DNA of 64,000 nt, from assembly GCF_054482525.1 (NCBI RefSeq), contig NZ_CM137006.1, one strand, 5' to 3'. Numbering within the stretch: the first letter of the stretch is position 1; each line of letters starts with the position of its first letter. The translations under genes were made by a program, and so were the position numbers. The notes beneath the pieces were generated by a model. The model saw only the letters and a list, made by a program, of their open reading frames with translations. It was not told where the DNA came from and searched no databases. Shown here in pieces: positions 924 to 33,294 of the stretch.

Positions 924-1010
924 GCGAAGGTGGCGGAATTGGTAGACGCGCTAGCTTCAGGTGTTAGTGTCCTTACGGACGTGGGGGTTCAAGTCCCCCC
1001 CCTCGCACCA
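924..1010 (+). tRNA. leuQ: tRNA-Leu (anticodon CAG), 87 nt with encoded CCA
   Basis: GCGAAGGTGGCGGAATTGGTAGACGCG...GGTTCAAGTCCCCCCCCTCGCACCA; long variable arm typical of tRNA-Leu; symbol assigned by order in operon from memory. Confidence 0.9.
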
Positions 1011-1038
1011 AAAACCACGTTGATATTGCTCGCACTGG

Positions 1039-1125
1039 GCGAAGGTGGCGGAATTGGTAGACGCGCTAGCTTCAGGTGTTAGTGTTCTTACGGACGTGGG
1101 GGTTCAAGTCCCCCCCCTCGCACCA
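1039..1125 (+). tRNA. leuP: tRNA-Leu (anticodon CAG), 87 nt, single-base variant (GTTCTT vs GTCCTT in variable arm)
   Basis: Second tandem copy, identical except one nucleotide. Confidence 0.9.
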
Positions 1126-1159
1126 AACGAGGCGATATCAAAAAAAGTAAGATGACTGT

Positions 1160-1246
1160 GCGAAGGTGGCGGAATTGGTAGACGCGCTAGCTTCAGGTGT
1201 TAGTGTCCTTACGGACGTGGGGGTTCAAGTCCCCCCCCTCGCACCA
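1160..1246 (+). tRNA. leuV: tRNA-Leu (anticodon CAG), 87 nt
   Basis: Third tandem copy, identical to first. Confidence 0.9.
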
Positions 1247-12602: not shown

Positions 12603-13964
12603 GTGGAAAAAGAAAATATCACCCTCGATCCGCGTTCTTCATTTACTCCATCTTCGTCGGCAGATATTCCCGTGCCACCAGATGGATTAGTTCAACGCAG
12701 TACCCGAATTAAACGCATTCAAGCCACCGCCATGTTGTTATTATTTTTTGCGGCGGTAATCAATTATCTCGACCGCAGTTCGCTGTCGGTAGCAAATTTA
12801 ACGATTCGTGAAGAATTGGGATTAAGTGCCACCGAAATCGGCGCTTTGCTCTCCGTGTTTTCACTCGCTTACGGGATTGCGCAACTTCCTTGCGGCCCAC
12901 TATTGGATCGTAAAGGCCCACGCCTGATGCTGGGACTGGGGATGTTCTTCTGGTCACTGTTCCAGGCCATGTCTGGCATGGTGCACAGCTTTACGCAGTT
13001 CGTGTTGGTGCGTATCGGTATGGGGATTGGTGAAGCGCCGATGAACCCATGTGGCGTAAAAGTCATTAACGACTGGTTCAACATCAAAGAGCGCGGACGC
13101 CCGATGGGCTTCTTCAACGCAGCTTCTACCATTGGCGTAGCCGTAAGCCCACCGATTCTGGCAGCGATGATGCTGGTGATGGGCTGGCGCGGGATGTTTA
13201 TTACCATTGGTGTACTGGGGATTTTTCTCGCCATCGGCTGGTATATGCTCTATCGCAACCGCGAGCACGTAGAACTGACTGCCGTTGAACAAGCTTATCT
13301 CAATGCAGGTAGCGTCAATGCCCGCCGAGATCCGCTCAGTTTTGCCGAATGGCGCAGCCTGTTCCGTAACCGCACAATGTGGGGAATGATGCTCGGATTC
13401 AGTGGCATCAACTACACTGCGTGGCTGTATCTGGCCTGGCTTCCTGGTTACCTGCAAACAGCCTATAACCTGGATTTAAAAAGCACAGGGTTGATGGCGG
13501 CTATCCCTTTCCTGTTTGGGGCTGCCGGGATGCTGGTCAACGGTTACGTTACTGACTGGCTGGTCAAAGGGGGAATGGCTCCGATTAAAAGCCGTAAGAT
13601 CTGCATTATTGCCGGGATGTTCTGTTCTGCCGCCTTTACGCTGGTCGTACCGCAAGCGACAACATCCATGACGGCGGTTCTGCTGATTGGCATGGCACTG
13701 TTCTGTATTCACTTTGCCGGAACATCCTGCTGGGGCTTGATCCACGTCGCAGTTGCTTCTCGCATGACTGCATCGGTGGGCAGTATCCAGAACTTTGCCA
13801 GCTTCATCTGCGCCTCTTTTGCGCCGATCATTACTGGTTTTATTGTTGATACCACCCACTCATTCCGTCTGGCACTAATCATCTGCGGTTGCGTCACCGC
13901 GGCGGGTGCACTGGCGTACATCTTCCTGGTTCGTCAGCCGATCAACGACCCGCGTAAAGATTAA
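12603..13964 (+). CDS. lgoT: MFS transporter (L-galactonate:H+ symporter)
   Basis: 453 aa, 12-TM MFS pattern; GTG start. Confidence 0.85.
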   Translation: MEKENITLDPRSSFTPSSSADIPVPPDGLVQRSTRIKRIQATAMLLLFFAAVINYLDRSSLSVANLTIREELGLSATEIGALLSVFSLAYGIAQLPCGPLLDRKGPRLMLGLGMFFWSLFQAMSGMVHSFTQFVLVRIGMGIGEAPMNPCGVKVINDWFNIKERGRPMGFFNAASTIGVAVSPPILAAMMLVMGWRGMFITIGVLGIFLAIGWYMLYRNREHVELTAVEQAYLNAGSVNARRDPLSFAEWRSLFRNRTMWGMMLGFSGINYTAWLYLAWLPGYLQTAYNLDLKSTGLMAAIPFLFGAAGMLVNGYVTDWLVKGGMAPIKSRKICIIAGMFCSAAFTLVVPQATTSMTAVLLIGMALFCIHFAGTSCWGLIHVAVASRMTASVGSIQNFASFICASFAPIITGFIVDTTHSFRLALIICGCVTAAGALAYIFLVRQPINDPRKD

Positions 13965-13972
13965 TCTCCCTA

Positions 13973-14006
13973 TGCCCGATAACATTTTGCTTATCGGGCA
14001 TTTTTA
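13973..14006. terminator. bidirectional rho-independent terminator between convergent lgoT and tsr
   Basis: TGCCCGATAA-cattttgc-TTATCGGGCA followed by TTTTTA. Confidence 0.6.
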
Positions 14007-14012
14007 TGGCGA

Positions 14013-15668
14013 TTAAAACGTTTCCCAGTTCTCCTCGCTATCTGCCATGGCCATTTTACGCGGCGTAGCTGGCGTCACGGTTTTTACCACAGCCGATGTT
14101 TCACGCTGCTGTTGCTGAATCCGGAACACTGCCACAGCTTCGGTCAGGCGACTGGCCTGCTCTTCCAGCGCGGCGGCGGCAGCGGCAGATTCTTCCACCA
14201 GCGCAGCGTTCTGTTGAGTTACCCGGTCCATCTCAGCGACCGCTAAGCCAACCTGATCGATACCACGGCTCTGCTCATCAGAAGCAGAAGCTATTTCGCC
14301 CATAATGTCCGTCACGCGGGTCACAGCACTGACAATCTCCGCCATTGTTTCCCCGGCGCTTTCGACCAGCGTAGAGCCAACATCCACTTTCCCCACCGAG
14401 TCTTCAATCAGGCTTTTAATTTCACGAGCCGCCTGGGCGCTACGCTGGGCCAGATTACGCACTTCTCCCGCAACCACCGCAAAACCGCGCCCTTGCTCAC
14501 CCGCACGCGCAGCCTCAACCGCGGCGTTCAAAGCCAGAATATTGGTCTGGAAGGCAATGCCGTCAATTACGCTGATAATATCGGCGATTTTCTGCGAACT
14601 GGTGGAGATATCGCGCATGGTCTGCACCACGTTATCCACCACTTTGCCGCCGCGTTGCGCCGTTTCAGAAGCACTTAATGCCAGATGGCTGGCCTGGCGC
14701 GCATTCTCGGCGTTCTGTTTCACCGTTGCGGTCAGTTGCTCCATGCTGGCTGCCGTCTCTTCCAGCGAAGCGGCCTGTTGCTCGGTGCGCGAAGAGAGAT
14801 CGTTATTACCGGTGGCGATTTCGCTGGCACCGCTATAGATGGCATTGGCCCCGTTGCGCACATCACCGACGGTACGCATCAGCTCTCCCTGCATATGGCG
14901 CAAACTCTCTGCCAGTTGCCCCATCTCATTAGAGCCATCCACCTCAATCGGTTTCACCAGATCGCCGCCTGCAATATGACGAATGCTGTCAATCAGGCGA
15001 TTCATTGGCGCTACCAACGAGGCTTTAATACCGAACCAGACGGCGAAGATGACCGCCAGTACGACGATCATCACGCCCACCAGAATCCACATCGCCTGGC
15101 TGTAGGAGGCATTGTTATCGCTGACGGCGATATCATAGAGCCGATCGTTTTGCTCCATGTAAGCCACATACTGCTTCTCGAAAGCGTCCTGATATCCCTG
15201 GGTCGGCTGATCAAAGAACTCGTTGATTTTGCCTGCACCTAACAGTTGGATCAGCTCCGCCAGCGCATTGTGATAAATATCGTAATTACGTTTGATCTCT
15301 GACGCTGCGGCGGTGCTCTGACGCGGGTCACGCGGCAACGCTTCGTAATCCGCCCAGTTTTTTTCCGCCTGTTTCAGCGAAATACTGGCACTCTGCATCA
15401 GCTCAGCAACGGTTGAACCGCTACCAATATTATTCTGATCCATCATGTAGCGGATACCCGCGCGGTTGAGGGTGTTACGCGTCTGCAACAACGCAACCCA
15501 GCTGCCATTCAGCGTGGATTGCTGCTGGCGAATGGTTTGTAAAACAGTGAAATTTTCTTTGTCATTCTTTAAGGCATTAAAGAACAGACCGCCTGAAGTC
15601 AGTTGTAAAAGGCCAAAAACGGCCAAAACCAGCAGTAAGCTGGTCACAATTTTGATACGTTTTAACAT
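14013..15668 (-). CDS. tsr: methyl-accepting chemotaxis protein I (serine chemoreceptor)
   Basis: 551 aa; HAMP plus MCP signalling domain, methylation-site EEQ/QEE repeats, C-terminal NWETF pentapeptide. Confidence 0.95.
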
Positions 15669-15698
15669 GGTTTCTCTTTCCTGTGGACCGATGCAAGA

Positions 15699-15725
15699 TT
15701 TTCGGCCTGGAAAGCAAAAACTTTA
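15699..15725 (-). promoter_or_regulatory. sigma28 (FliA) promoter for tsr
   Basis: Minus strand reads TAAAGTTT-N11-GCCGAAAA versus consensus TAAAGTTT-N11-GCCGATAA, about 30 bp upstream of tsr ATG. Confidence 0.65.
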
Positions 15726-15786
15726 TGAAAAGGTGTAACCCGCCATCCATGGAAAAACCAGGCGCTGGTTATCAGATATTAAAAAG

Positions 15787-16233
15787 TTATTCATTATCGC
15801 CCGGGATGTCTTCTTGTCGGGAATTACCCAGAGCAATAAATTCCTCTAACAGATGGGTTAACTGTTGCATTTTCTCGGCAGTAAACTGAGCTTCAATCTG
15901 CCGATAGGCTTCTTCAATCTGTGTCTGAGCGCGGTTATACAGGGCCTGCCCCTCTTTGGTCAGCGAGATATAGAGCTTCCGCTGATCATTGATCGGCTTT
16001 AATCGCAACACTAAACCGTCGCGTTCCATCCGCGTGAGGATCCCGGTCAGGCTTGGGCGCAAAATGCAGGCGCGATACGCCAGATCGTGAAAATCCATTG
16101 ATGGGCTTTCCGCCAGAATACGCACGATGCGCCACTGTTGCTCTGTCAAATTATGCCGTTTAACGATTGGGCGAAAATAACTCATCGCCGCTTCTCGCGC
16201 CTGGAGCAACGCAATGGTTAGTGAGTCGTGCAT
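15787..16233 (-). CDS. hpaR: MarR-family repressor of homoprotocatechuate degradation
   Basis: 148 aa from MHDSLTIALLQ; MarR winged helix; divergent from hpaG. Confidence 0.85.
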   Translation of the reverse strand: MHDSLTIALLQAREAAMSYFRPIVKRHNLTEQQWRIVRILAESPSMDFHDLAYRACILRPSLTGILTRMERDGLVLRLKPINDQRKLYISLTKEGQALYNRAQTQIEEAYRQIEAQFTAEKMQQLTHLLEEFIALGNSRQEDIPGDNE

Positions 16234-16504
16234 TATCTTTCCCCTGAAAAATTCAAAATCATTAATATAGAAACAGTTAATCATCACGTTACCGGGACTG
16301 CGCTGCCCCTGCAATTCTTCATTTTATCAAAATTGAGCATGTTTTGTTAACTTACTGATATTTAATATTTTATTATCTTTAAATGTAAATAGTTTGTTAA
16401 TTAGATCACATTTACATCACTTACTTTTGCCAAACTACGCAATCGGGAATAAAAGTAATCATTAACATATTAATGATTAAGATGATCGAATCCGAGGAGT
16501 GGTA
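16234..16504. promoter_or_regulatory. divergent hpaR / hpaG promoter-operator region
   Basis: AT-rich 270-bp spacer between divergent starts; RBS GGAG before hpaG ATG; HpaR operators expected here (not individually resolved). Confidence 0.4.
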
Positions 16505-17794
16505 ATGAAAGGCACTATCTTCGCCGTAGCGTTGAACCATCGCAGCCAACTTGATGCATGGCAGGAAGCGTTCCAGCAATCCCCCTACAAAGCCCCGCCT
16601 AAAACTGCGGTCTGGTTTATTAAACCGCGCAATACGGTGATTGGTTGCGGTGAACCGATTCCCTTTCCACAGGGTGAAAAGGTACTGAGCGGTGCGACTG
16701 TTGCGCTGATTGTGGGAAAAACGGCGACGAAAGTACGTGAAGAAGATGCAGCAGAGTACATCGCCGGATATGCGCTGGCTAACGACGTCAGCCTGCCGGA
16801 AGAGAGCTTTTACCGCCCGGCAATCAAAGCAAAATGTCGTGATGGATTCTGCCCCATTGGCGAAACCGTGGCTCTCAGCAATGTCGATAATCTGACCATC
16901 TATACCGAGATCAACGGGCGTCCTGCCGATCACTGGAACACCGCCGATTTACAACGTAATGCCGCGCAGTTGCTGAGCGCTCTGAGCGAATTTGCCACGC
17001 TGAATCCAGGCGATGCCATTCTGCTCGGCACGCCACAGGCGCGCGTGGAAATACAGCCAGGCGATCGCGTTCGTGTTCTCGCTGAAGGTTTCCCGCCACT
17101 GGAAAATCCGGTAATGGACGAACGTGAAGTGACCACGCGCAAGAGCTTCCCAACGCAGCCACACCCGCACGGCACGCTGTTTGCCCTCGGCCTGAACTAC
17201 GCCGACCACGCCAGCGAACTGGAATTTAAGCCACCGGAAGAACCGCTGGTGTTCCTGAAAGCGCCGAATACCCTCACTGGCGATAACCAGACCTCCGTGC
17301 GCCCGAACAATATTGAATATATGCACTACGAAGCGGAGCTGGTGGTGGTGATTGGCAAGCAGGCGCGTAACGTCAGCGAAGCCGATGCTATGGATTATGT
17401 CGCGGGCTACACCGTGTGTAACGACTACGCCATTCGCGACTATCTGGAAAACTACTACCGCCCTAACCTGCGGGTAAAAAGCCGCGACGGACTGACGCCG
17501 ATGCTTTCAACCATCGTGCCGAAAGAGGCGATCCCGGACCCGCATAATCTGACCCTTCGCACCTTCGTCAACGGCGAGTTACGCCAGAAAGGCACCACCG
17601 CCGATCTGATCTTCAGCGTGCCCTTCCTGATCGCCTACTTAAGCGAATTTATGACCCTGAATCCGGGCGACATGATCGCCACCGGCACACCAAAAGGCTT
17701 ATCTGACGTGGTGCCTGGCGATGAAGTAGTAGTGGAAGTAGAAGGCGTGGGCCGCCTGGTGAACCGAATTGTGAGTGAGGAAACAGCGAAATGA
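16505..17794 (+). CDS. hpaG: bifunctional 5-oxopent-3-ene-1,2,5-tricarboxylate decarboxylase / 2-hydroxyhepta-2,4-diene-1,7-dioate isomerase (tandem FAH-fold)
   Basis: 429 aa; two homologous halves; first gene of meta-cleavage operon. Confidence 0.88.
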   Translation: MKGTIFAVALNHRSQLDAWQEAFQQSPYKAPPKTAVWFIKPRNTVIGCGEPIPFPQGEKVLSGATVALIVGKTATKVREEDAAEYIAGYALANDVSLPEESFYRPAIKAKCRDGFCPIGETVALSNVDNLTIYTEINGRPADHWNTADLQRNAAQLLSALSEFATLNPGDAILLGTPQARVEIQPGDRVRVLAEGFPPLENPVMDEREVTTRKSFPTQPHPHGTLFALGLNYADHASELEFKPPEEPLVFLKAPNTLTGDNQTSVRPNNIEYMHYEAELVVVIGKQARNVSEADAMDYVAGYTVCNDYAIRDYLENYYRPNLRVKSRDGLTPMLSTIVPKEAIPDPHNLTLRTFVNGELRQKGTTADLIFSVPFLIAYLSEFMTLNPGDMIATGTPKGLSDVVPGDEVVVEVEGVGRLVNRIVSEETAK

Positions 17795-19257
17795 AAAAAG
17801 TAAATCATTGGATCAACGGCAAAAATGTTGCAGGTAACGACTACTTCCAGACCACCAATCCGGCAACGGGTGAAGTGCTGGCGGATGTGGCCTCTGGCGG
17901 TGAAGCGGAGATCAATCAGGCGGTAGCGGCAGCGAAAGAGGCGTTCCCGAAATGGGCCAATCTGCCGATGAAAGAGCGTGCGCGCCTGATGCGCCGTCTG
18001 GGCGATCTGATCGACCAGAACGTGCCTGAGATCGCCGCGATGGAAACCGCGGACACGGGCCTGCCAATCCATCAGACCAAAAATGTGTTGATCCCACGCG
18101 CTTCTCACAACTTTGAATTTTTCGCGGAAGTCTGCCAGCAGATGAACGGCAAGACCTATCCGGTTGACGACAAGATGCTCAACTACACGCTGGTGCAACC
18201 GGTAGGCGTTTGTGCGCTGGTATCGCCGTGGAACGTGCCGTTTATGACCGCCACATGGAAGGTCGCGCCGTGTCTGGCGCTGGGCAATACCGCGGTGTTG
18301 AAAATGTCGGAACTCTCCCCGCTGACCGCTGACCGCCTGGGTGAGCTGGCGCTGGAAGCCGGTATTCCGGCGGGCGTGCTGAACGTGGTACAGGGCTACG
18401 GCGCAACCGCAGGCGATGCGCTGGTTCGTCATCATGACGTACGTGCCGTGTCGTTCACCGGCGGTACGGCCACCGGGCGCAACATCATGAAAAACGCCGG
18501 GCTGAAAAAATACTCCATGGAACTGGGCGGTAAATCGCCGGTGCTGATTTTTGAAGATGCCGATATTGAACGCGCGCTGGACGCTGCCCTGTTCACCATC
18601 TTCTCGATCAACGGCGAGCGCTGCACCGCCGGTTCGCGCATCTTTATTCAGCAAAGCATCTACCCGGAATTCGTTAAACGCTTTGCCGAACGCGCCAACC
18701 GTCTGCGCGTGGGCGATCCGAACGATCCGAATACCCAGGTTGGGGCGCTTATCAGCCAGCAACACTGGGAAAAAGTCTCCGGCTATATTCGTCTCGGCAT
18801 TGAAGAAGGCGCAACCCTGCTGGCGGGCGGTCCGGATAAACCGTCCGACCTGCCTGCGCACCTGAAAGGCGGCAACTTCCTGCGCCCAACGGTGCTGGCT
18901 GACGTTGATAACCGTATGCGCGTCGCCCAGGAAGAGATTTTCGGGCCGGTCGCCTGTCTGCTGCCGTTTAAAGACGAAGCCGAAGGCTTACGTCTGGCAA
19001 ACGACGTGGAGTACGGCCTCGCGTCGTACATCTGGACACAGGATGTCAGCAAAGTGTTACGCCTGGCGCGTGGCATTGAAGCAGGCATGGTGTTCGTCAA
19101 CACCCAGAACGTGCGTGACCTGCGCCAGCCATTTGGCGGCGTAAAAGCCTCCGGCACCGGGCGTGAAGGCGGTGAGTACAGCTTCGAAGTGTTCGCGGAA
19201 ATGAAGAACGTCTGCATTTCCATGGGCGACCATCCAATTCCGAAATGGGGAGTCTGA
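17791..19257 (+). CDS. hpaE: 5-carboxymethyl-2-hydroxymuconate semialdehyde dehydrogenase (NAD aldehyde dehydrogenase)
   Basis: 488 aa; aldehyde dehydrogenase active-site region; ATGA overlap with hpaG. Confidence 0.9.
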   Translation: MKKVNHWINGKNVAGNDYFQTTNPATGEVLADVASGGEAEINQAVAAAKEAFPKWANLPMKERARLMRRLGDLIDQNVPEIAAMETADTGLPIHQTKNVLIPRASHNFEFFAEVCQQMNGKTYPVDDKMLNYTLVQPVGVCALVSPWNVPFMTATWKVAPCLALGNTAVLKMSELSPLTADRLGELALEAGIPAGVLNVVQGYGATAGDALVRHHDVRAVSFTGGTATGRNIMKNAGLKKYSMELGGKSPVLIFEDADIERALDAALFTIFSINGERCTAGSRIFIQQSIYPEFVKRFAERANRLRVGDPNDPNTQVGALISQQHWEKVSGYIRLGIEEGATLLAGGPDKPSDLPAHLKGGNFLRPTVLADVDNRMRVAQEEIFGPVACLLPFKDEAEGLRLANDVEYGLASYIWTQDVSKVLRLARGIEAGMVFVNTQNVRDLRQPFGGVKASGTGREGGEYSFEVFAEMKNVCISMGDHPIPKWGV

Positions 19258-19258
19258 T

Positions 19259-20110
19259 ATGGGTAAGTTAGCGTTAGCCGCCAAGATCACGCACGTACCG
19301 TCGATGTATCTCTCTGAACTGCCAGGGAAAAACCACGGTTGCCGCCAGGGTGCGATTGACGGGCATAAAGAGATCAGCAAGCGTTGCCGGGAAATGGGCG
19401 TCGATACCATTATCGTTTTCGATACCCACTGGCTGGTCAACAGTGCTTATCACATCAACTGTGCAGACCATTTTGAAGGCGTCTACACCAGCAACGAGCT
19501 GCCGCATTTTATCCGCGATATGACCTACAACTACGAGGGCAACCCGGAGTTGGGGCAGCTTATTGCCGATGAAGCCTTAAAACTCGGCGTGCGGGCAAAA
19601 GCGCACAATATTCCCAGCCTGAAACTGGAATACGGCACGCTGGTGCCAATGCGCTACATGAATGAAGACAAGCACTTCAAAGTGGTCTCCATTTCGGCTT
19701 TCTGCACGGTTCACGATTTTGCCGACAGCCGCAAGCTTGGCGAAGCGATTGTGAAAGCGATCGAACAGTACGACGGCACCGTGGCGGTCCTTGCCAGCGG
19801 TTCGTTATCGCACCGCTTTATTGACGATCAGCGTGCGGAAGAAGGGATGAACAGCTACACCCGCGAGTTCGACCGCCAGATGGACGAGCGCGTGGTGAAG
19901 CTGTGGCGCGAAGGCCAGTTCAAAGAGTTCTGCAATATGCTGCCGGAGTACGCCGACTACTGCTACGGCGAAGGCAATATGCACGACACGGTGATGCTGC
20001 TGGGGATGCTCGGCTGGGATAAATACGACGGCAAGGTGGAGTTTATTACCGAGCTGTTCCCAAGCTCTGGCACTGGTCAGGTTAACGCTGTTTTCCCGCT
20101 TCCCGCGTAA
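19259..20110 (+). CDS. hpaD: 3,4-dihydroxyphenylacetate 2,3-dioxygenase (extradiol)
   Basis: 283 aa; starts 2 bp after hpaE stop. Confidence 0.88.
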   Translation: MGKLALAAKITHVPSMYLSELPGKNHGCRQGAIDGHKEISKRCREMGVDTIIVFDTHWLVNSAYHINCADHFEGVYTSNELPHFIRDMTYNYEGNPELGQLIADEALKLGVRAKAHNIPSLKLEYGTLVPMRYMNEDKHFKVVSISAFCTVHDFADSRKLGEAIVKAIEQYDGTVAVLASGSLSHRFIDDQRAEEGMNSYTREFDRQMDERVVKLWREGQFKEFCNMLPEYADYCYGEGNMHDTVMLLGMLGWDKYDGKVEFITELFPSSGTGQVNAVFPLPA

Positions 20111-20119
20111 GGAACCACC

Positions 20120-20500
20120 ATGCCGCACTTTATCGTGGAATGTACTGAAAATATTCGTCAAGAAGCCCGCTTACCTGAGCTGTTTGCCAGTGTTAACACC
20201 GCACTGGCGGCGACGGGGATTTTTCCGCTTGGGGGAATACGTAGCCGGGCGCACTGGATCGATACCTGGCAAATGGCCGATGGCAAGCACGATTACGCCT
20301 TTGTGCATATGACGCTAAAAATCGGCAGCGGGCGCAGTCTGGAAAGCCGTCAGGAAGTAGGTGAAATGCTGTTTGATCTGATTAAAACGCACTTCGCCTC
20401 ACTGATGGAGAGCCGTTACCTGGCGCTTTCATTTGAGATTGCAGAGCTGCACCCGACGTTGAATTTCAAACAGAACAACGTACACGCGTTGTTTAAATAA
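20120..20500 (+). CDS. hpaF: 5-carboxymethyl-2-hydroxymuconate isomerase
   Basis: 126 aa; N-terminal MPHFIVECT. Confidence 0.88.
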
Positions 20501-20567
20501 ATTTGCACCAGCTTCCAGGCCGGATGATAAGGCGCAGCCGCATCCGGCAATGCCACAGGATATCGCC

Positions 20568-21371
20568 ATGTTCGATAAACACACCCACACCCTGATCGCC
20601 CAGCGTCTGGATCAGGCAGAAAAACAGCGCGAACAGATCCGCGCGATCTCGCTGGATTACCCGGAGATCACCATCGAAGACGCTTACGCGGTGCAGCGTG
20701 AATGGGTTCGACTGAAAATCGCCGAAGGTCGCACGCTGAAAGGCCACAAAATCGGCCTGACCTCGAAAGCGATGCAGGCCAGCTCACAAATCAGCGAGCC
20801 GGATTACGGTGCCCTGCTGGATGACATGTTCTTCCACGATGGCAGCGATATCCCGACCGATCGCTTTATCGTGCCGCGCATTGAAGTGGAGCTGGCTTTC
20901 GTGCTGGCAAAACCGCTGCGTGGGCCAAACTGCACGCTGTTCGACGTTTACAACGCCACGGACTATGTGATCCCGGCGCTGGAGCTGATCGACGCTCGCT
21001 GCCACAACATCGATCCGGAAACCCAGCGCCCGCGTAAAGTGTTCGACACCATTTCTGATAACGCCGCCAATGCCGGGGTGATCCTCGGTGGTCGTCCGAT
21101 CAAACCTGACGAGCTGGATCTGCGTTGGATCTCCGCCCTCATGTATCGCAATGGCGTGATTGAAGAAACCGGCGTCGCCGCTGGTGTGCTGAATCATCCG
21201 GCAAACGGCGTGGCCTGGCTGGCGAACAAACTCGCACCGTATGACGTACAACTGGAAGCCGGGCAAATCATTCTCGGCGGTTCGTTCACCCGCCCGGTTC
21301 CGGCGCGTAAGGGCGACACCTTCCACGTCGATTACGGCAACATGGGTTCCATTAGCTGCCGCTTTGTTTAA
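20568..21371 (+). CDS. hpaH: 2-oxo-hept-4-ene-1,7-dioate hydratase
   Basis: 267 aa from MFDKHTH; FAH-fold hydratase. Confidence 0.88.
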
Positions 21372-21381
21372 GGAGAGAACG

Positions 21382-22170
21382 ATGGAAAACAGTTTTAAAG
21401 CGGCGCTGAAAGCAGGCCGCCCGCAGATCGGATTATGGCTGGGGCTAAGTAGCAGCTACAGCGCAGAGTTACTGGCCGGAGCAGGATTCGACTGGTTATT
21501 GATCGACGGTGAGCACGCGCCGAATAACGTGCAAACCGTGCTCACCCAACTACAGGCGATTGCGCCCTATCCCAGCCAGCCGGTAGTACGTCCGTCGTGG
21601 AACGATCCGGTGCAAATCAAACAACTGCTGGACGTCGGCACACAAACCTTACTGGTGCCGATGGTACAAAACGCCGACGAAGCCCGTGAAGCGGTACGCG
21701 CCACCCGTTATCCCCCCGCCGGTATTCGTGGTGTGGGCAGTGCGCTGGCCCGCGCCTCGCGCTGGAATCGTATTCCTGATTACCTGCAAAAAGCCAACGA
21801 TCAAATGTGCGTGCTGGTGCAGATCGAAACGCGTGAGGCAATGAAGAACCTACCGCAGATTCTGGACGTGGAAGGGGTAGACGGCGTGTTTATCGGCCCG
21901 GCGGATCTGAGCGCCGATATGGGTTATGCCGGTAATCCGCAGCACCCGGAAGTGCAGGCCGCCATTGAACAGGCGATCGTGCAAATCCGTGAAGCGGGCA
22001 AAGCGCCGGGGATCCTGATCGCCAATGAGCAACTGGCAAAACGCTACCTGGAACTGGGCGCGCTATTTGTCGCCGTCGGCGTTGACACCACCCTGCTCGC
22101 CCGCGCCGCCGAAGCGCTGGCAGCACGGTTTGGCGCGCAGGCTACAGCGATTAAGCCCGGCGTGTATTAA
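21382..22170 (+). CDS. hpaI: 4-hydroxy-2-oxo-heptane-1,7-dioate aldolase (class II, HpcH/HpaI)
   Basis: 262 aa from [29 protein letters not shown] upstream. Confidence 0.9.
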
Positions 22171-22250
22171 TGCCGGATGCGCTGCGCTTATCCGGCCTAC
22201 ACTCGCACCAAACCGTAGGCCGGATAAGGCGTTTACGCCGCATCCGCCAT
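22171..22250. repeat. pair of REP elements (BIME-like) between hpaI and hpaX
   Basis: TGCCGGATGCGCTGCGCTTATCCGGCCTAC and inverted GTAGGCCGGATAAGGCGTTTACGCCGCATCCGCC. Confidence 0.7.
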
Positions 22251-22293
22251 AAACCTTGTCGTACCCTACAAAAATCCCATTAGAGGAAGAAAA

Positions 22294-23670
22294 ATGAGCG
22301 ACACCTCACCTGCCATACCGGAAAGTATCGATCCGGCAAATCAGCATAAAACGCTGACTGCCGGACAACAGGCGGTTATTAAGAAGCTGTTTCGCCGCCT
22401 GATCGTCTTTCTGTTCGTGCTGTTTATCTTCTCGTTCCTTGATCGCATCAACATCGGCTTTGCCGGGCTCACGATGGGACGCGACCTCGGTCTGAGCGCC
22501 ACCATGTTTGGCCTCGCCACCACCCTGTTCTACGCCGCTTATGTCATCTTCGGCATTCCCAGCAACATTATGCTGAGTATTGTCGGTGCGCGGCGCTGGA
22601 TCGCCACCATCATGGTGCTTTGGGGCATCGCCTCTACGGTCACCATGTTTGCCACTGGCCCCACCAGCTTGTACGTACTGCGCATACTGGTTGGCATTAC
22701 CGAAGCCGGCTTTCTGCCTGGCATTCTGCTGTATTTAACCTTCTGGTTTCCGGCCTATTTCCGCGCCCGTGCCAACGCCTTGTTTATGGTAGCAATGCCG
22801 GTAACGACAGCGTTGGGATCGATCGTTTCCGGCTACATTTTGTCGCTGGATGGCGTAATGGCATTAAAAGGCTGGCAGTGGCTGTTTTTGCTGGAAGGCT
22901 TCCCGTCGGTATTACTCGGCGTCATGGTGTGGTTCTGGCTTGATGACTCACCGGACAAAGCTAAGTGGCTGACGAAAGAAGACAAAAAATGCCTGCAAGA
23001 GATGATGGATAACGATCGTCTGACGCTGGTTCAGCCAGAGGGAGCCATCAGCCACCACGCCATGCAACAACGCAGCATGTGGCGGGAGATCTTCACTCCG
23101 GTGGTGATGATGTATACCCTGGCGTATTTCTGCCTGACCAACACACTTAGTGCAATCAGCATCTGGACACCGCAGATCCTACAAAGCTTTAATCAGGGTA
23201 GCAGTAATATCACCATCGGCCTGCTGGCCGCCGTACCGCAGATTTGTACCATTCTCGGGATGATCTACTGGAGCCGTCACTCAGATCGCCGCCAGGAACG
23301 AAGGCATCACACCGCCCTTCCTTATTTGTTCGCTGCCGCTGGTTGGTTACTGGCTTCGGCAACTGATCACAACATGATCCAGATGCTGGGGATCATTATG
23401 GCTTCGACCGGATCATTCAGCGCAATGGCGATTTTCTGGACAACACCGGATCAGTCCATCAGCCTGCGGGCACGAGCGATCGGTATTGCGGTGATCAACG
23501 CCACTGGCAACATTGGTTCAGCATTAAGTCCGTTTATGATCGGCTGGTTGAAAGATCTGACCGGCAGCTTTAACAGTGGATTGTGGTTTGTTGCCGCGCT
23601 GCTGGTGATTGGTGCGGGGATTATCTGGGCGATTCCAATGCAGTCCTCCCGTCCGCGAGCGACCCCGTAA
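22294..23670 (+). CDS. hpaX: 4-hydroxyphenylacetate permease (MFS)
   Basis: 458 aa, 12-TM MFS. Confidence 0.88.
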   Translation: MSDTSPAIPESIDPANQHKTLTAGQQAVIKKLFRRLIVFLFVLFIFSFLDRINIGFAGLTMGRDLGLSATMFGLATTLFYAAYVIFGIPSNIMLSIVGARRWIATIMVLWGIASTVTMFATGPTSLYVLRILVGITEAGFLPGILLYLTFWFPAYFRARANALFMVAMPVTTALGSIVSGYILSLDGVMALKGWQWLFLLEGFPSVLLGVMVWFWLDDSPDKAKWLTKEDKKCLQEMMDNDRLTLVQPEGAISHHAMQQRSMWREIFTPVVMMYTLAYFCLTNTLSAISIWTPQILQSFNQGSSNITIGLLAAVPQICTILGMIYWSRHSDRRQERRHHTALPYLFAAAGWLLASATDHNMIQMLGIIMASTGSFSAMAIFWTTPDQSISLRARAIGIAVINATGNIGSALSPFMIGWLKDLTGSFNSGLWFVAALLVIGAGIIWAIPMQSSRPRATP

Positions 23671-23679
23671 GGAACGACG

Positions 23680-24570
23680 ATGTGTGACCGTCAGATTGCC
23701 AATATTGATATCAGCAAAGAGTACGATGAAAGCCTGGGTACTGACGATGTGCATTATCAGTCGTTCGCCCGCATGGCGGCATTTTTTGGCCGCCATATGC
23801 TGCCACATCGCCACGAACAGTACTTTCAGATGCATTTCCTCAATAGCGGACAGATTGAGCTACAGCTTGACGATCATCGCTACTCGGTGGAAGCGCCCCT
23901 GTTTGTCCTGACGCCACCGTCAGTACCTCATGCGTTTATTACGGAGTCTGACGCCGACGGTCATGTGTTGACGGTACGGGAAGATCTGATCTGGCCCCTG
24001 CTGGAAGTTCTTTATCCGGGCACTCGGGAAACCTTCGGCCTGCCGGGGATTTGCCTGTCACTGGCAGATAAACCCGACGAACTGGCGGCGCTGGAACACT
24101 ATTGGCAACTGATAGAGCGGGAATCGGTAGAACAACTGCCTGGACGGGAACACACCCTGACGCTACTGGCACAGGCAGTGTTCACCCTACTGCTGCGTAA
24201 CGCAAAACTCGACGACCATGCCGCCAGCGGGATGCGCGGAGAATTAAAACTGTTCCAACGTTTTCATATGCTGATTGAAAGCCATTTTCACCAGCACTGG
24301 ACAGTACCGGATTACGCTAACGAACTGCATATCACCGAATCACGACTCACGGACATCTGCCGTCGCTTTGCCAACCGTCCGCCAAAACGGTTGATTTTCG
24401 ACAGGCAGCTGCGAGAAGCCAAACGGCTGCTGCTGTTTTCTGATAACGCCGTGAACAATATTGCCTGGCAACTCGGTTTTAAGGATCCGGCTTATTTTGC
24501 CCGCTTTTTTAATCGCTTAGTCGGTTGCTCGCCCAGTGCTTATCGTGCCAAAAAAGTACCTGTGACGTGA
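23680..24570 (+). CDS. hpaA: AraC/XylS-family activator of hpaBC
   Basis: 296 aa; C-terminal AraC HTH (IAWQLGFKDPAYFARFFNRLVGCSPSAYR). Confidence 0.85.
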   Translation: MCDRQIANIDISKEYDESLGTDDVHYQSFARMAAFFGRHMLPHRHEQYFQMHFLNSGQIELQLDDHRYSVEAPLFVLTPPSVPHAFITESDADGHVLTVREDLIWPLLEVLYPGTRETFGLPGICLSLADKPDELAALEHYWQLIERESVEQLPGREHTLTLLAQAVFTLLLRNAKLDDHAASGMRGELKLFQRFHMLIESHFHQHWTVPDYANELHITESRLTDICRRFANRPPKRLIFDRQLREAKRLLLFSDNAVNNIAWQLGFKDPAYFARFFNRLVGCSPSAYRAKKVPVT

Positions 24571-24820
24571 AAATCCCTTAGCCTTAACGGGAAACCAGGC
24601 ACCACCTGCTATTCCCCTTTCTCCGCCTGGAGCAAGGGGATTTAGTAACGTTAAAAATCGTTAAAAGCGACCTCGATCACAAAACCGTACCCGACATGAA
24701 AAGTACCAGCCATTGTCCCAAAAGTGTCTTCCCGTAATCGCCCCTGCAAGCTTCAATTGAATAACAAAAACAACACACAAAATTAACAATCGTATTCCGA
24801 TTAATACTGTAGAGGTCGAC
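24571..24820 (+). promoter_or_regulatory. hpaBC promoter region (HpaA-dependent)
   Basis: 250-bp non-coding gap upstream of hpaB; individual sites not resolved. Confidence 0.35.
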
Positions 24821-26383
24821 ATGAAACCAGAAGATTTCCGCGCCAGTACCCAACGTCCGTTCACCGGGGAAGAGTATCTGAAAAGCCTGCAGGATGGTCG
24901 AGAGATCTATATCTATGGCGAGCGAGTGAAAGACGTCACCACTCATCCGGCATTTCGTAATGCGGCAGCGTCTGTTGCCCAACTGTACGACGCGCTACAC
25001 AAACCGGAGATGCAGGACTCTCTGTGTTGGAACACCGACACCGGCAGCGGCGGCTATACCCATAAATTCTTCCGCGTGGCGAAAAGTGCCGACGACCTGC
25101 GCCAGCAACGCGACGCCATCGCTGAGTGGTCACGCCTGAGCTATGGCTGGATGGGCCGTACCCCAGACTACAAAGCTGCTTTCGGTTGCGCACTGGGCGC
25201 GAATCCGGGCTTTTACGGTCAGTTCGAGCAGAACGCCCGTAACTGGTACACCCGTATTCAGGAAACTGGCCTCTACTTTAACCACGCGATTGTTAACCCA
25301 CCGATCGATCGTCATTTGCCGACCGATAAAGTAAAAGACGTTTACATCAAGCTGGAAAAAGAGACTGACGCCGGGATTATCGTCAGCGGTGCGAAAGTGG
25401 TTGCCACCAACTCGGCGCTGACTCACTACAACATGATTGGCTTCGGCTCGGCACAAGTGATGGGCGAAAACCCGGACTTCGCACTGATGTTCGTTGCGCC
25501 AATGGATGCCGATGGCGTGAAATTAATCTCCCGCGCCTCTTATGAGATGGTCGCGGGTGCTACCGGCTCGCCGTACGACTACCCGCTCTCCAGCCGCTTC
25601 GATGAGAACGATGCGATTCTGGTGATGGATAACGTGCTGATCCCATGGGAAAACGTGCTGATCTACCGCGATTTTGATCGCTGCCGTCGCTGGACGATGG
25701 AAGGCGGTTTCGCCCGTATGTATCCGCTGCAAGCCTGTGTGCGCCTGGCAGTGAAATTAGACTTCATTACGGCACTGCTGAAAAAATCACTCGAATGTAC
25801 CGGCACCCTGGAGTTCCGTGGCGTGCAGGCCGATCTCGGTGAAGTGGTGGCGTGGCGCAACACCTTCTGGGCATTGAGTGACTCGATGTGTTCAGAAGCA
25901 ACGCCGTGGGTCAACGGGGCTTATTTACCGGATCATGCCGCACTGCAAACCTATCGCGTACTGGCACCAATGGCCTACGCGAAGATCAAAAACATTATCG
26001 AACGCAACGTTACCAGTGGCCTGATCTATCTCCCTTCCAGTGCCCGTGACCTGAACAATCCGCAGATCGACCAGTATCTGGCGAAGTATGTGCGCGGTTC
26101 GAATGGTATGGATCACGTCCAGCGCATCAAGATCCTCAAACTGATGTGGGATGCCATTGGCAGCGAATTTGGTGGTCGTCACGAACTGTATGAAATCAAC
26201 TACTCCGGTAGCCAGGATGAGATTCGCCTGCAGTGTCTGCGCCAGGCACAAAGCTCCGGCAATATGGACAAGATGATGGCGATGGTTGATCGCTGCCTGT
26301 CGGAATACGACCAGAACGGCTGGACTGTGCCGCACCTGCACAACAACGACGATATCAACATGCTGGATAAGCTGCTGAAATAA
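24821..26383 (+). CDS. hpaB: 4-hydroxyphenylacetate 3-monooxygenase, oxygenase component
   Basis: 520 aa; two-component flavin-dependent monooxygenase large subunit. Confidence 0.93.
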   Translation: MKPEDFRASTQRPFTGEEYLKSLQDGREIYIYGERVKDVTTHPAFRNAAASVAQLYDALHKPEMQDSLCWNTDTGSGGYTHKFFRVAKSADDLRQQRDAIAEWSRLSYGWMGRTPDYKAAFGCALGANPGFYGQFEQNARNWYTRIQETGLYFNHAIVNPPIDRHLPTDKVKDVYIKLEKETDAGIIVSGAKVVATNSALTHYNMIGFGSAQVMGENPDFALMFVAPMDADGVKLISRASYEMVAGATGSPYDYPLSSRFDENDAILVMDNVLIPWENVLIYRDFDRCRRWTMEGGFARMYPLQACVRLAVKLDFITALLKKSLECTGTLEFRGVQADLGEVVAWRNTFWALSDSMCSEATPWVNGAYLPDHAALQTYRVLAPMAYAKIKNIIERNVTSGLIYLPSSARDLNNPQIDQYLAKYVRGSNGMDHVQRIKILKLMWDAIGSEFGGRHELYEINYSGSQDEIRLQCLRQAQSSGNMDKMMAMVDRCLSEYDQNGWTVPHLHNNDDINMLDKLLK

Positions 26384-26400
26384 CGCAGCAGGAGGTTAAG

Positions 26401-26913
26401 ATGCAATTAGATGAACAACGCCTGCGCTTTCGTGACGCAATGGCCAGCCTGTCGGCAGCGGTAAATATTATCACCACCGAGGGCAACGCCGGGCAATGCG
26501 GGATTACGGCAACGGCTGTCTGCTCGGTCACGGATACACCACCGTCGCTGATGGTGTGCATTAACGCCAACAGTGCGATGAACCCGGTTTTTCAGGGCAA
26601 CGGTAAGTTGTGCGTCAACGTCCTCAACCATGAGCAGGAACTGATGGCACGCCACTTCGCGGGCATGACAGGCATGGCGATGGAAGAGCGTTTTAGCCTC
26701 TCATGCTGGCAAAAAGGTCCGCTGGCGCAGCCGGTGCTAAAAGGTTCGCTGGCCAGTCTTGAAGGTGAGATCCGCGATGTGCAGGCAATTGGCACACATC
26801 TGGTGTATCTGGTGGAGATTAAAAACATCATCCTCAGTGCAGAAGGTCACGGACTTATCTACTTTAAACGCCGTTTCCATCCGGTGATGCTGGAAATGGA
26901 AGCTGCGATTTAA
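26401..26913 (+). CDS. hpaC: 4-hydroxyphenylacetate 3-monooxygenase, NADH:flavin reductase component
   Basis: 170 aa flavin reductase; RBS GGAGG before ATG. Confidence 0.9.
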   Translation: MQLDEQRLRFRDAMASLSAAVNIITTEGNAGQCGITATAVCSVTDTPPSLMVCINANSAMNPVFQGNGKLCVNVLNHEQELMARHFAGMTGMAMEERFSLSCWQKGPLAQPVLKGSLASLEGEIRDVQAIGTHLVYLVEIKNIILSAEGHGLIYFKRRFHPVMLEMEAAI

Positions 26914-26919
26914 GCTCCA

Positions 26920-26955
26920 GCCCCTTCACGTATTCGTCGAAGGGGCATTTTTATT
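26920..26955 (+). terminator. rho-independent terminator after hpaC
   Basis: GCCCCTTC-loop-GAAGGGGC followed by ATTTTTATT. Confidence 0.65.
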
Positions 26956-26970
26956 GTGATCTCAATCACA
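26955..26970. promoter_or_regulatory. CRP-binding site candidate (TGTGA-N6-TCACA)
   Basis: Perfect TGTGAtctcaaTCACA; about 335 bp upstream of btsT start. Confidence 0.45.
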
Positions 26971-27305
26971 TATCCACCCGATGAATAATTCTTGCCCAAC
27001 CGCTCACCGCCATTCCTGACCGCTTACATCCCTAAAATAACCACTCAGTTATTTACCTTACTTTATGCGCGCGTAACTCTGGCAACATCACTGCAGGATA
27101 GCGGTCAATTTACCTCCTCAAACGCAACGCAAACCTAGAACGGCTTCGGCCTATGATTAACAAATTACTCTATGGATTTTGGTTTGCAGGAAGGCAGCAA
27201 GTGAGTGAATCCCCGGGAGCTTACAACAGTAAGTGACAGGGGTGAACGAACGCAGCTGCCGCACCTGTAAGCCAAAAGACGACGAGTAAAATGCCAGGTT
27301 TTACT

Positions 27306-30753: not shown

Positions 30754-33294
30754 TTATCTCTGAACGTGCAACACTTCCTGCGACTCCTTATGCGCCTCCA
30801 CATCCTGCTTCGTTAACCAGAGCGACTTACGACCAAAATTTTCGTACATTTTCAGCTGATCTTCATAGTGCTTATCAACTGTTCCATCGGGAGCAATAAA
30901 TCCACTCTGACCGGGTGCGACCACATCCCAGGCAAGCACCGGGCGATCGCTCGTCATTGGTGAGAAGACAATCATATCGTTTTCTGTTCCACGGTTTTGA
31001 TACTCCGCCTGATGACGCGCTTCTTCCGCTGCGGCCTGCGGTACGCCAAAGAAATTATTTGCCCGGAACGTTAAGGCCATTGCAGGTGTTTTCCAGTTAC
31101 TCACATTATTGCCATAGCGTTTGGAAAGAGTCTCCCAGGTATCTTCCAGCGCAGCCAACACAACCTCCTGCTGTGATTTCCCGGCAAACAGATCAACCGC
31201 CTGTGGGATTGGTGATTTGTCTCCCTGCACCGCCTCATACAAAATTTTTGCTCCAACACTTATATTCAGCGAACCAGTTGGACCGTCCTGGGTTGTTTCG
31301 TAGCCACTGGCGCTGTACCACTTATCAAATGGCATAGGTACAACAGCCACTACGGTACGCTTCAACATACTGGTCAGCCAAACGTTTAGGATGGCAGAGC
31401 CTGGCTGTTGCCAGGTTTTACCATCATCATTGAGCAGATTGATGCCATCCCAACGTGTTAATGTTTCTACCAACTGACGACGCGGATCGCTCTGTGTCAA
31501 ACCAGATGTCGCTGCTTGCAGAGTAGGTAAAAAAAGCCTCAGGTTAAGATCCTGACGACTGGTTTGGCGAATAACATCCCATGCCTGATCAGCAGTTAAG
31601 CGTGGCTTTTGCTCAAGCAGTCGGTCGATCTCCGTAACGCGATCTGCACCACCCCACAAAAAGGCAAACAGATCCGAAGCGGGATAATCTTTTTGGGGGG
31701 AATTGTTCCAGTTAGCAATATATCCCGACTGGGGGTTATACACCTTAGGGTTCATTTCAAAAGGCAATAGCCCTTTCCAGTCCCATTTTCCCGTACCAGG
31801 AACGGGTAATCGCGGATCATGGCCTGATTGACGATCTGGATAAGCACCAGTATGAACATAACCAATATTGCCGTTTACATCAGCATAGTACCAGTTGATG
31901 GTCAGTGCTTGTTTCGCTGCCTGCTGTGTCCACTCCTGCCAATTTTTGGCCTTCATCTGATGAGTCCAGGCCAGCAAAGACGCCACCTCTTTACCATCCC
32001 ATGCGCGGGATTTAGCGTAAGCCGTTTGTGTCGTCTGGTCAGTTTGGAGAATGTTGCCATGCACCGTACGCCAGACAGTAAAGGTCTCTGCCTGACCATT
32101 TTTCACCGTAATGGTTTCCTCACGGCTTAACATTTTCACCCACTTACCATTATGCAAGTAGTAGCCTGGTTTCTCTGCCGACAGCTGTTCAGCAAAAATA
32201 TCGACATCATCGCCGAAACCTGCCGTTGATCCCCAGGAAATGACACCATTATGACCAAAAACCAGCCCCGGATAGGCAAATGGTGTATTGCCAGTGACGT
32301 CATAACCAGCACCATGCAGACCAATACCATAAGTATACGCAGGCGCATACCAGCCAAACTGCGGACCATTTACCATGATTGCTTTCGCATCCTGGGCTTT
32401 GCTTTTGCCGATCACCCACATATTGCTGGTCGTTGGATACCCCGCCAGACCATTGGCACCACTCTGTGCAAATTGTGCAGCAATAGTTTCTCGGTTCTTC
32501 CCTGCTGTTAACGCCAGCAGTGCGCCATCCGCCCCTTTTGCTGGTCGGTCAAGCATTGGTGCAGGCAAATCGTAGCGTGGCAACAGAGCTGCTGTTTGCG
32601 AGTTTTGCTGATTAAATTTAAGTGGGTAGCTACTCTCTTGTACGGCAATAGTGGTTGGCGCTGATGGGTTTACCAGCCATTTCAACTGATTAAATACCGC
32701 CATGCCTTGTGATACACCATATTTATCTTTTAAAGCCGTTAGCAGTGCCAGATTATCAATTTCGCTAGTGCTATCAGAGAAGCGGTTTGCCATGGTGCCC
32801 ACAAATATCATCGCGACATCAAACGGTTCCCAGCGCTTAGGAGTAAAGCCAAATGTATTAAACTGTTTTGGTAAGAGCGTCTCTGGATTGGTATTTACCT
32901 TATCAATCCAGGCATTCATTCCATCAGCGTAGCCTTGCAGAATGGACATATCCTCTGGGGAAAGGGCAGCAATTTGTGCCCGGATAGCATCCGGCCAGTA
33001 GTTACGGCGGATATCTTTATCAAATTTCACAAAATCTTTGCCAAGCACTTCCGCGACAGTTCCTTGAGTACTGCGACGTGCCATTTCCATCTGAAAAAGG
33101 CGATCTTGTGCTACTGCATAGCCATAGCCATAAAATAGGTGCCATGTATCATTGGCATAAATATGCGGCATGCCGTATTCATCGCGAACAATCTTTATCT
33201 CACTTGACGACTGCTCAGCCAGTGCAGGCAAGCTCCAACAACACATCAGGTAAGCAGTAACACAGTTCACGATCATACGATTTCTATTTTTCAT
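30754..33294 (-). CDS. pac: penicillin G acylase precursor (Ntn-hydrolase; signal peptide, alpha subunit, spacer, beta subunit)
   Basis: 846 aa; N-terminus [14 protein letters not shown]...[25 protein letters not shown] matches remembered E. coli penicillin amidase. Confidence 0.93.

Follow-up and report, generated by a model that had tools for sequence, protein, structure and literature searches.

The window analysed here, a stretch of 64,000 nucleotides from contig NZ_CM137006.1 (GCF_054482525.1), carries the serine chemoreceptor gene tsr directly downstream of an hpa cluster that E. coli K-12 does not have at this position. The locus raises the question of what is left of the flagellar promoter of tsr at such a junction, where exactly the hpa DNA begins, and whether it is rightly called an insertion. 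The tsr promoter and the neighboring hpa cluster are both already known. That hpa lies beside tsr has been in the literature since the 1990s; reportedly it was placed there by Prieto and co-workers in 1996 and by Diaz and co-workers in 2001. The hpa cluster of E. coli W, B and C has the same gene content and order as that of the window, between btsT (yjiY) and tsr, with no notable difference.

A reading of this DNA from its sequence only (below, the sequence-only reading) had described a near-consensus sigma28 promoter at 15699-15725 on the minus strand, and the letters are as described. The minus strand from 15725 to 15699 reads TAAAGTTT-TTGCTTTCCAG-GCCGAAAA, that is, a -35 element (15718-15725, positions -33 to -26), an 11-nt spacer (15707-15717) and a -10 element (15699-15706, positions -14 to -7). 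It agrees with the sigma28 consensus TAAAGTTT-N11-GCCGATAA at 15 of 16 positions; the one mismatch is an A in the -10 element where the consensus has T, and is the same in K-12. No other sigma28 match with two or fewer mismatches occurs in the 64-kb window, where 0.04 would be expected by chance and where 4 of 100 dinucleotide-preserving shuffles gave one. At three or fewer mismatches only one extra site appears in the 64 kb, unrelated and inside the hpa genes. From the end of the -10 element to the tsr ATG (15668) there are 30 nt. The coding sequence (14013-15668, minus strand, 551 aa) is 98.4% identical to K-12 tsr at the DNA level, and the same reading frame is annotated as tsr in the E. 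coli PCN033 record, which is 100% identical over a 1,101-base query (window 15300-16400). Element match, 11-nt spacing and location before a chemotaxis gene are thus all those of the sigma28 class.

The tsr sigma28 promoter is among the best-documented class-3 flagellar promoters. The window allele differs little from that of K-12 MG1655: from TTCA, just upstream of the -35 element, through ATG, 63 of 64 bases are identical, and the single change, C to G, falls in the spacer (K-12 counterpart TTCCTTTCCAG). The two recognition elements and the entire leader are unchanged, which upholds the earlier statement that the tsr FliA promoter is intact. At K-12 tsr, FliA ChIP-seq gave a peak scoring 94 (fold above threshold) on the motif TAAAGTTTTTCCTTTCCAGGCCGAAAAT; tsr RNA was 630 in motile MG1655 and 9 in a fliA deletion, a 70-fold FliA dependence; and the FliA ChIP-qPCR value was 21.9, with -0.07 as its comparison (Fitzgerald et al., 2014, PMC4183435). 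The sigma28 (RpoF) holoenzyme alone, in vitro, yielded a genomic-SELEX site at 4589632 in the yjiY/tsr spacer (Shimada et al., 2017, PMC5493296).

In RegulonDB the code TIM stands for transcription-initiation mapping. The tsrp start is recorded there at 4589656 (NC_000913.2), the A in cttgcAtcgg, under the codes TIM and HIPP (PMC4183435, supplementary file 5). The sequence from the -10 element to ATG is identical in the two strains, and this position corresponds to 15692 (A, minus strand) of the window, 7 nt past the -10 element. A mapped start inconsistent with the promoter had been named as what would speak against it; the start recorded by mapping in K-12 fits. The portion of the Cappable-seq supplements available to us (PMC4782308) holds no entry near the tsr start. 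Transferred to the window, the start at 15692 would give tsr mRNA a 24-nt 5' UTR, of which the remainder (15669-15691, minus strand) contains a ribosome-binding stretch, AGGAAAGAG, read from the sequence at 15674-15682.

We infer that the FliA binding, FliA dependence and start site of the K-12 allele apply to this strain too, and 15699-15725 (minus strand) is, by that analogy, very probably the class-3 flagellar (sigma28/FliA) promoter of tsr. RNA polymerase with sigma28 (FliA) would recognize TAAAGTTT and GCCGAAAA, 11 nt apart, and initiate at about 15692 (A), giving a tsr mRNA with a 24-nt leader. The gene would be transcribed as a single-gene unit ending at a strong hairpin common to the convergent lgoT (-21.7 kcal/mol), and the serine chemoreceptor would be made along with the late flagellar and chemotaxis genes. 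At the same convergent terminator, a further motif, TAAAGATTAATCTCCCTATGCCCGATAAC (13955-13982, plus strand), overlaps lgoT at its stop codon and extends into the hairpin; it points antisense to the tsr 3' end and is one base off a weak FliA ChIP-seq site of K-12, listed as 'tsr/yjiZ convergent' with score 3 (Fitzgerald et al., 2014, PMC4183435).

We then looked at the promoter across genera. One genome per species was scanned with the first 220 residues of Tsr, and the best 80 loci were taken; they come from Escherichia, Citrobacter, Salmonella, Enterobacter, Leclercia, Lelliottia, Kluyvera, Buttiauxella, Cedecea, Hafnia and others. Titles with Escherichia among these best 80 are 'Escherichia sp. 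E1V33', 'Escherichia sp. ESNIH1' and 'E. coli SCPM-O-B-8794'; no record among them is titled E. albertii, E. fergusonii or E. coli type strain. In all 80, with 250 nt upstream scanned, the best sigma28 match scores 13-15 of 16 and ends 28-37 nt before the tsr start. Windows of 250 nt drawn at random from these loci for the most part give 8-11 of 16; the few that reach 15 most likely overlap the true promoter, such overlaps having been left in. The exact TAAAGTTT is found in 75 of the 80 loci, the remaining five differing at one or two positions, and GCCGA of the -10 element is kept in every one. Across these loci and the E. coli haplotypes the spacer is always 11 nt long, with a sequence that varies among haplotypes and genera. 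GGAAAGAGAAA-ATG is conserved across genera as well.

When the loci are compared anchored at their right ends, cross-genus similarity starts abruptly, within about 10 bases of the -35 element, and covers the -35 and -10 elements, part of the leader and the ribosome-binding site. Beyond position -37 the same comparison finds nothing common to the E. coli haplotypes or to the genera. The tsr promoter is self-contained: its conservation does not extend past -37, and the K-12 version is bound in vitro by the holoenzyme on its own. Established knowledge of class-3 promoters, the K-12 evidence and the conservation point the same way, to transcription of tsr by sigma28 holoenzyme from the two elements. 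An activator site is neither required nor conserved.

It is very improbable that the motif is a chance match and that tsr is transcribed in some other way, for example from a promoter of sigma70 type in the hpaR 3' end or by read-through from hpaR. Such an account could call on a weak sigma70-like match (9/12) at 15820-15793 (minus strand) and on the want of a strong terminator after hpaR, but the sigma70-like scan gave 4 sites vs. 2.1 expected, which is no enrichment, whereas the sigma28 match has the chance expectation of 0.04, recurs at a near-fixed distance (28-37 nt) from the tsr start in 80 of 80 species loci, and belongs to a near-identical K-12 allele with direct experimental support.

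The other side of the junction is hpaR (15787-16233, minus strand), coding for the 148-aa MarR-type repressor of the hpa operon according to the annotation of the identical PCN033 record and the translation. It is on the same strand as tsr, and from its stop codon (15787-15789) to the tsr -35 element there are 61 nt (15726-15786), close to the 60 bp or so given by the sequence-only reading. That reading had confined the left boundary of the hpa DNA to this interval, which can now be narrowed to a point. Megablast end points, alignment and the right-anchored comparison agree that K-12 homology stops at 15729|15730, i.e., -37|-38, four bases upstream of the -35 element, TTCA (15726-15729, minus strand) being the last four bases common to K-12. 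Against B2-type strains, which share TTTTCA, the break is at 15731|15732. The remaining 57 nt between hpaR and the promoter (15730-15786, minus strand) have no match in K-12 and are specific to the hpa haplotype; they are 91% identical in a divergent Escherichia lineage (locus L011). The distance from hpaR to the -35 element, 61 nt in E. coli, is about 31 nt in most Enterobacter, Leclercia and Lelliottia loci.

A scan for intrinsic terminators after hpaR found none. The 57-nt spacer holds a weak hairpin with a run of five T (15753-15770, -5.4 kcal/mol vs. -19.1 kcal/mol for the hpaC terminator), so that any intrinsic terminator here is at most weak, and the whole hpaR-tsr spacer folds no better than shuffles of itself (z = -1.06). 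With no convincing terminator between them, transcription of hpaR may, as judged from the sequence, read through the tsr promoter. The hpaR promoter is de-repressed by hydroxyphenylacetates. Transcription from it might conceivably read into tsr or occlude its sigma28 promoter, linking aromatic-acid catabolism to Tsr expression, although we consider this improbable.

The hpa segment as a whole (hpaR, hpaGEDFHI, hpaXA, hpaBC) is 11,225 bp long (15730-26954) and stands where K-12 has 88 nt. Its far end is the hpaC terminator hairpin, GCCCCTTC...GAAGGGGC followed by TTTTT (26919-26954, plus strand; -19.1 kcal/mol). Immediately beyond, on the btsT side, the first element common to K-12 again is a CRP-type site, TGTGATTGAGATCACA (26955-26970; TGTGATTCATATCACA in K-12). 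CRP binds the K-12 tsr regulatory fragment tightly, with no detected effect on tsr, and the predicted CRP site was placed 132.5 bp upstream of the K-12 tsr start (Hollands et al., PMC2859248). In the window the same site is 11.3 kb from tsr, which fits an element of btsT rather than of tsr. Homology upstream of btsT with Citrobacter, Salmonella and Kluyvera also ends at the CRP site. The 61 nt next to the hpa segment (26955-27015) are only 66% identical to K-12, with the CRP core kept, vs. 94% for the neighboring 150 nt; from the sequence, this jump in identity has the look of an ancient recombination boundary within the regulatory region of btsT. Between this upstream region and the btsT start codon there is also a 124-nt element (27166-27289) that is absent from K-12. 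It presumably resembles the ERIC (enterobacterial repetitive intergenic consensus) repeat, going by the ERIC1R and ERIC2 primer sequences. The full-length element is present in 2062 genomes, close to the 2070 that carry hpa, and partial copies of 85-89% identity are found elsewhere.

The earlier description of the hpa DNA as an insertion holds in so far as the segment is extra relative to K-12. As the name of an event the word claims too much, given the 88 private nt of K-12, the lack of mobile hallmarks and the old linkage of hpaR and tsr; 'insertion' is a description relative to K-12 only. The 88 nt private to K-12 lie between the CRP site and TTCA and have no homologue in 80 other species. 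In local alignments of these 88 nt with the hpaR 3' end and the hpaC end, 275 and 901 of 1000 dinucleotide shuffles, respectively, score as well. MAFFT did pair K-12 TAAATAATGGCTTTTTAAATTCAGA with the hpaR end TAATGAATAACTTTTTAATATCTGA, which would suggest an hpaR remnant in K-12, but the pairing is not significant (275 of 1000 shuffles equal it). No direct repeats of at least 8 bases, inverted repeats or target-site duplication were found at the two hpa junctions; the longest word common to both neighborhoods is 7 nt and is not at the break points. The G+C content shows no shift (hpa segment 54.3%, tsr 54.1%, btsT 56.2%). No integrase or transposase is annotated in the hpa segment of the identical PCN033 record, which has only hpa genes between btsT and tsr. 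No tRNA gene adjoins the segment: the Rfam scan of the whole window gave only three tandem tRNA genes (924-1243, plus strand; tRNA-Leu in the identical record), about 14 kb away, and no known RNA near the promoter. Repeats, an integrase or tRNA gene, deviant G+C and a clean empty site, as would mark a mobile island, are all missing, K-12 having its 88 private nt and the stretch of 61 nt at 66% identity instead.

The adjacency of hpaR and tsr extends beyond E. coli. Among the best 80 loci, 13 further species, belonging to Enterobacter, Leclercia and Lelliottia, have hpaR as the gene immediately before tsr and in its orientation, as does the divergent Escherichia lineage L011, whose tsr is 87-92% identical. 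Between E. coli and Enterobacter, Leclercia or Lelliottia, DNA identity is 76-78% for hpaR and 78-81% for tsr. The divergence of hpaR is thus like that of tsr, so that their linkage goes back about as far as the genera themselves and was not recently imported from them.

Two histories of the difference from K-12 were weighed. According to one, a K-12-like ancestor received the hpa cluster as an island, mobile or horizontally acquired, at a point four bases upstream of the tsr -35 element. The 11.2 kb extra relative to K-12 with a sharp break, the presence of the short K-12-type region in about half of the E. coli genomes, and the Citrobacter and Salmonella loci, which have btsT beside tsr without hpa, are what it would explain. 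However, the private 88 nt make the difference between the hpa and K-12 states a replacement and not a simple insertion; the segment has no direct repeats of at least 8 bases at its ends, a G+C content equal to its flanks, and neither integrase, transposase nor adjoining tRNA gene; and recent import from Enterobacter, Leclercia or Lelliottia is contradicted by the tsr-like divergence of the pair in those 13 species. We regard this history as unlikely. In the other, hpa stood upstream of tsr from the start, and a deletion of the cluster that ended on one side just before the tsr promoter left the K-12-type region. It is favored by the hpaR-tsr adjacency in E. coli, L011, Enterobacter, Leclercia and Lelliottia, everywhere at core-gene-like divergence, and by a difference between strains of Lelliottia nimipressuralis, which have either hpaR (L047) or btsT (L021) upstream of tsr. 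On the other hand, neither end of the hpa segment is significantly similar to the 88 nt of K-12, the K-12-type segment too has a long history in E. coli, with 712 genomes at 90-95% identity, and hpa is absent upstream of tsr in Citrobacter, Salmonella and Kluyvera. An ancestral hpa arrangement followed by deletion is a tentative proposal, not quite an even bet, and loss in the K-12 state is rated somewhat likelier than gain in the hpa state.

Haplotypes were counted in 5,426 complete E. coli genomes, 5390 of which have the tsr start region. Four mutually exclusive arrangements account for 5384 of the 5390. The K-12-type short region is the most frequent (2757 genomes), followed by the hpaR-tsr arrangement (2070), an O157 type (363) with a 180-aa reading frame without Pfam family (788-1330 of locus L004, E. 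coli O157:H7), and a fourth type (194) with a MurR/RpiR regulator and a sodium:solute symporter. The O157-type segment has about 70% DNA identity to a Citrobacter braakii region (L071 and L072 are the Citrobacter loci), and for the fourth-type segment identity is 90% with Escherichia sp. E1V33 and 75% with Leclercia; with hpa, three of the segments in the slot have relatives in other genera.

All four haplotypes keep TAAAGTTT-N11-GCCGAnAA. The O157 type has a promoter spacer of its own, and the fourth type departs in spacer, -10 element (GCCGACAA) and leader alike. In E. coli XDL (L005) and Escherichia sp. E1V33 (L007), which have this -10 element, the 60 nt before tsr have the spacer and leader replaced up to the ribosome-binding site, so that there the end point of the exchange lies inside the transcribed leader and not upstream of the promoter. 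In a metagenome-assembled enterobacterial genome (L015, 904-1920) and in Pseudocitrobacter (L063, 2809-3843), an Ldh_2-family dehydrogenase gene in the same orientation separates hpaR from the tsr promoter, and Pseudocitrobacter has two more genes there; this arrangement is yet another filling of the slot upstream of tsr. Elsewhere, in E. coli ES9 (L006, 2440-2660), an IS5-like element (ISKpn26 family) starts 7 nt into tsr; tsr, lgoT and lgoR are missing, and an intact sigma28 promoter reads into the insertion sequence.

The simplest description of these data is an old variable slot between the divergent tsr and btsT, bounded by the tsr -35 element and the btsT CRP site. We infer that its edges sit where they do since selection preserves the two regulatory regions. 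With four exclusive segments in one intergenic slot between conserved flanking genes, it is like the integration and replacement hot spots of the E. coli pan-genome. Unlike such hot spots, it is marked by no tRNA gene, integrase or repeat, and each of its edges falls on the outermost regulatory element of a flanking gene. Elsewhere in the window, between yjiS and yjiA, there is a penicillin G acylase gene (30754-33294, minus strand), whereas K-12 has mcrC and mcrB after yjiS, which makes this a second variable slot in the window.

The tsr promoter of the window is thus like K-12 tsrp in gene, in position relative to ATG and in its identical -35 element, -10 element and leader. It differs by the spacer base, G instead of C, and in all the DNA upstream of -37, with hpaR and its 57-nt tail where K-12 has its private 88 nt, and with the CRP site 11.3 kb from tsr instead of 132.5 bp. 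A different upstream DNA meets the polymerase alpha subunits in each haplotype, and the strength of the tsr promoter could differ accordingly. To the known promoter and cluster the comparison adds the exact junction at -37|-38 and a clean cross-genus footprint, that of a promoter needing nothing upstream of its -35 element. The hpa 'insertion' is better described as one of four segments that alternate in an old variable slot. A practical point for those who annotate or engineer strains is that the tsr promoter stays whole with any of these segments.
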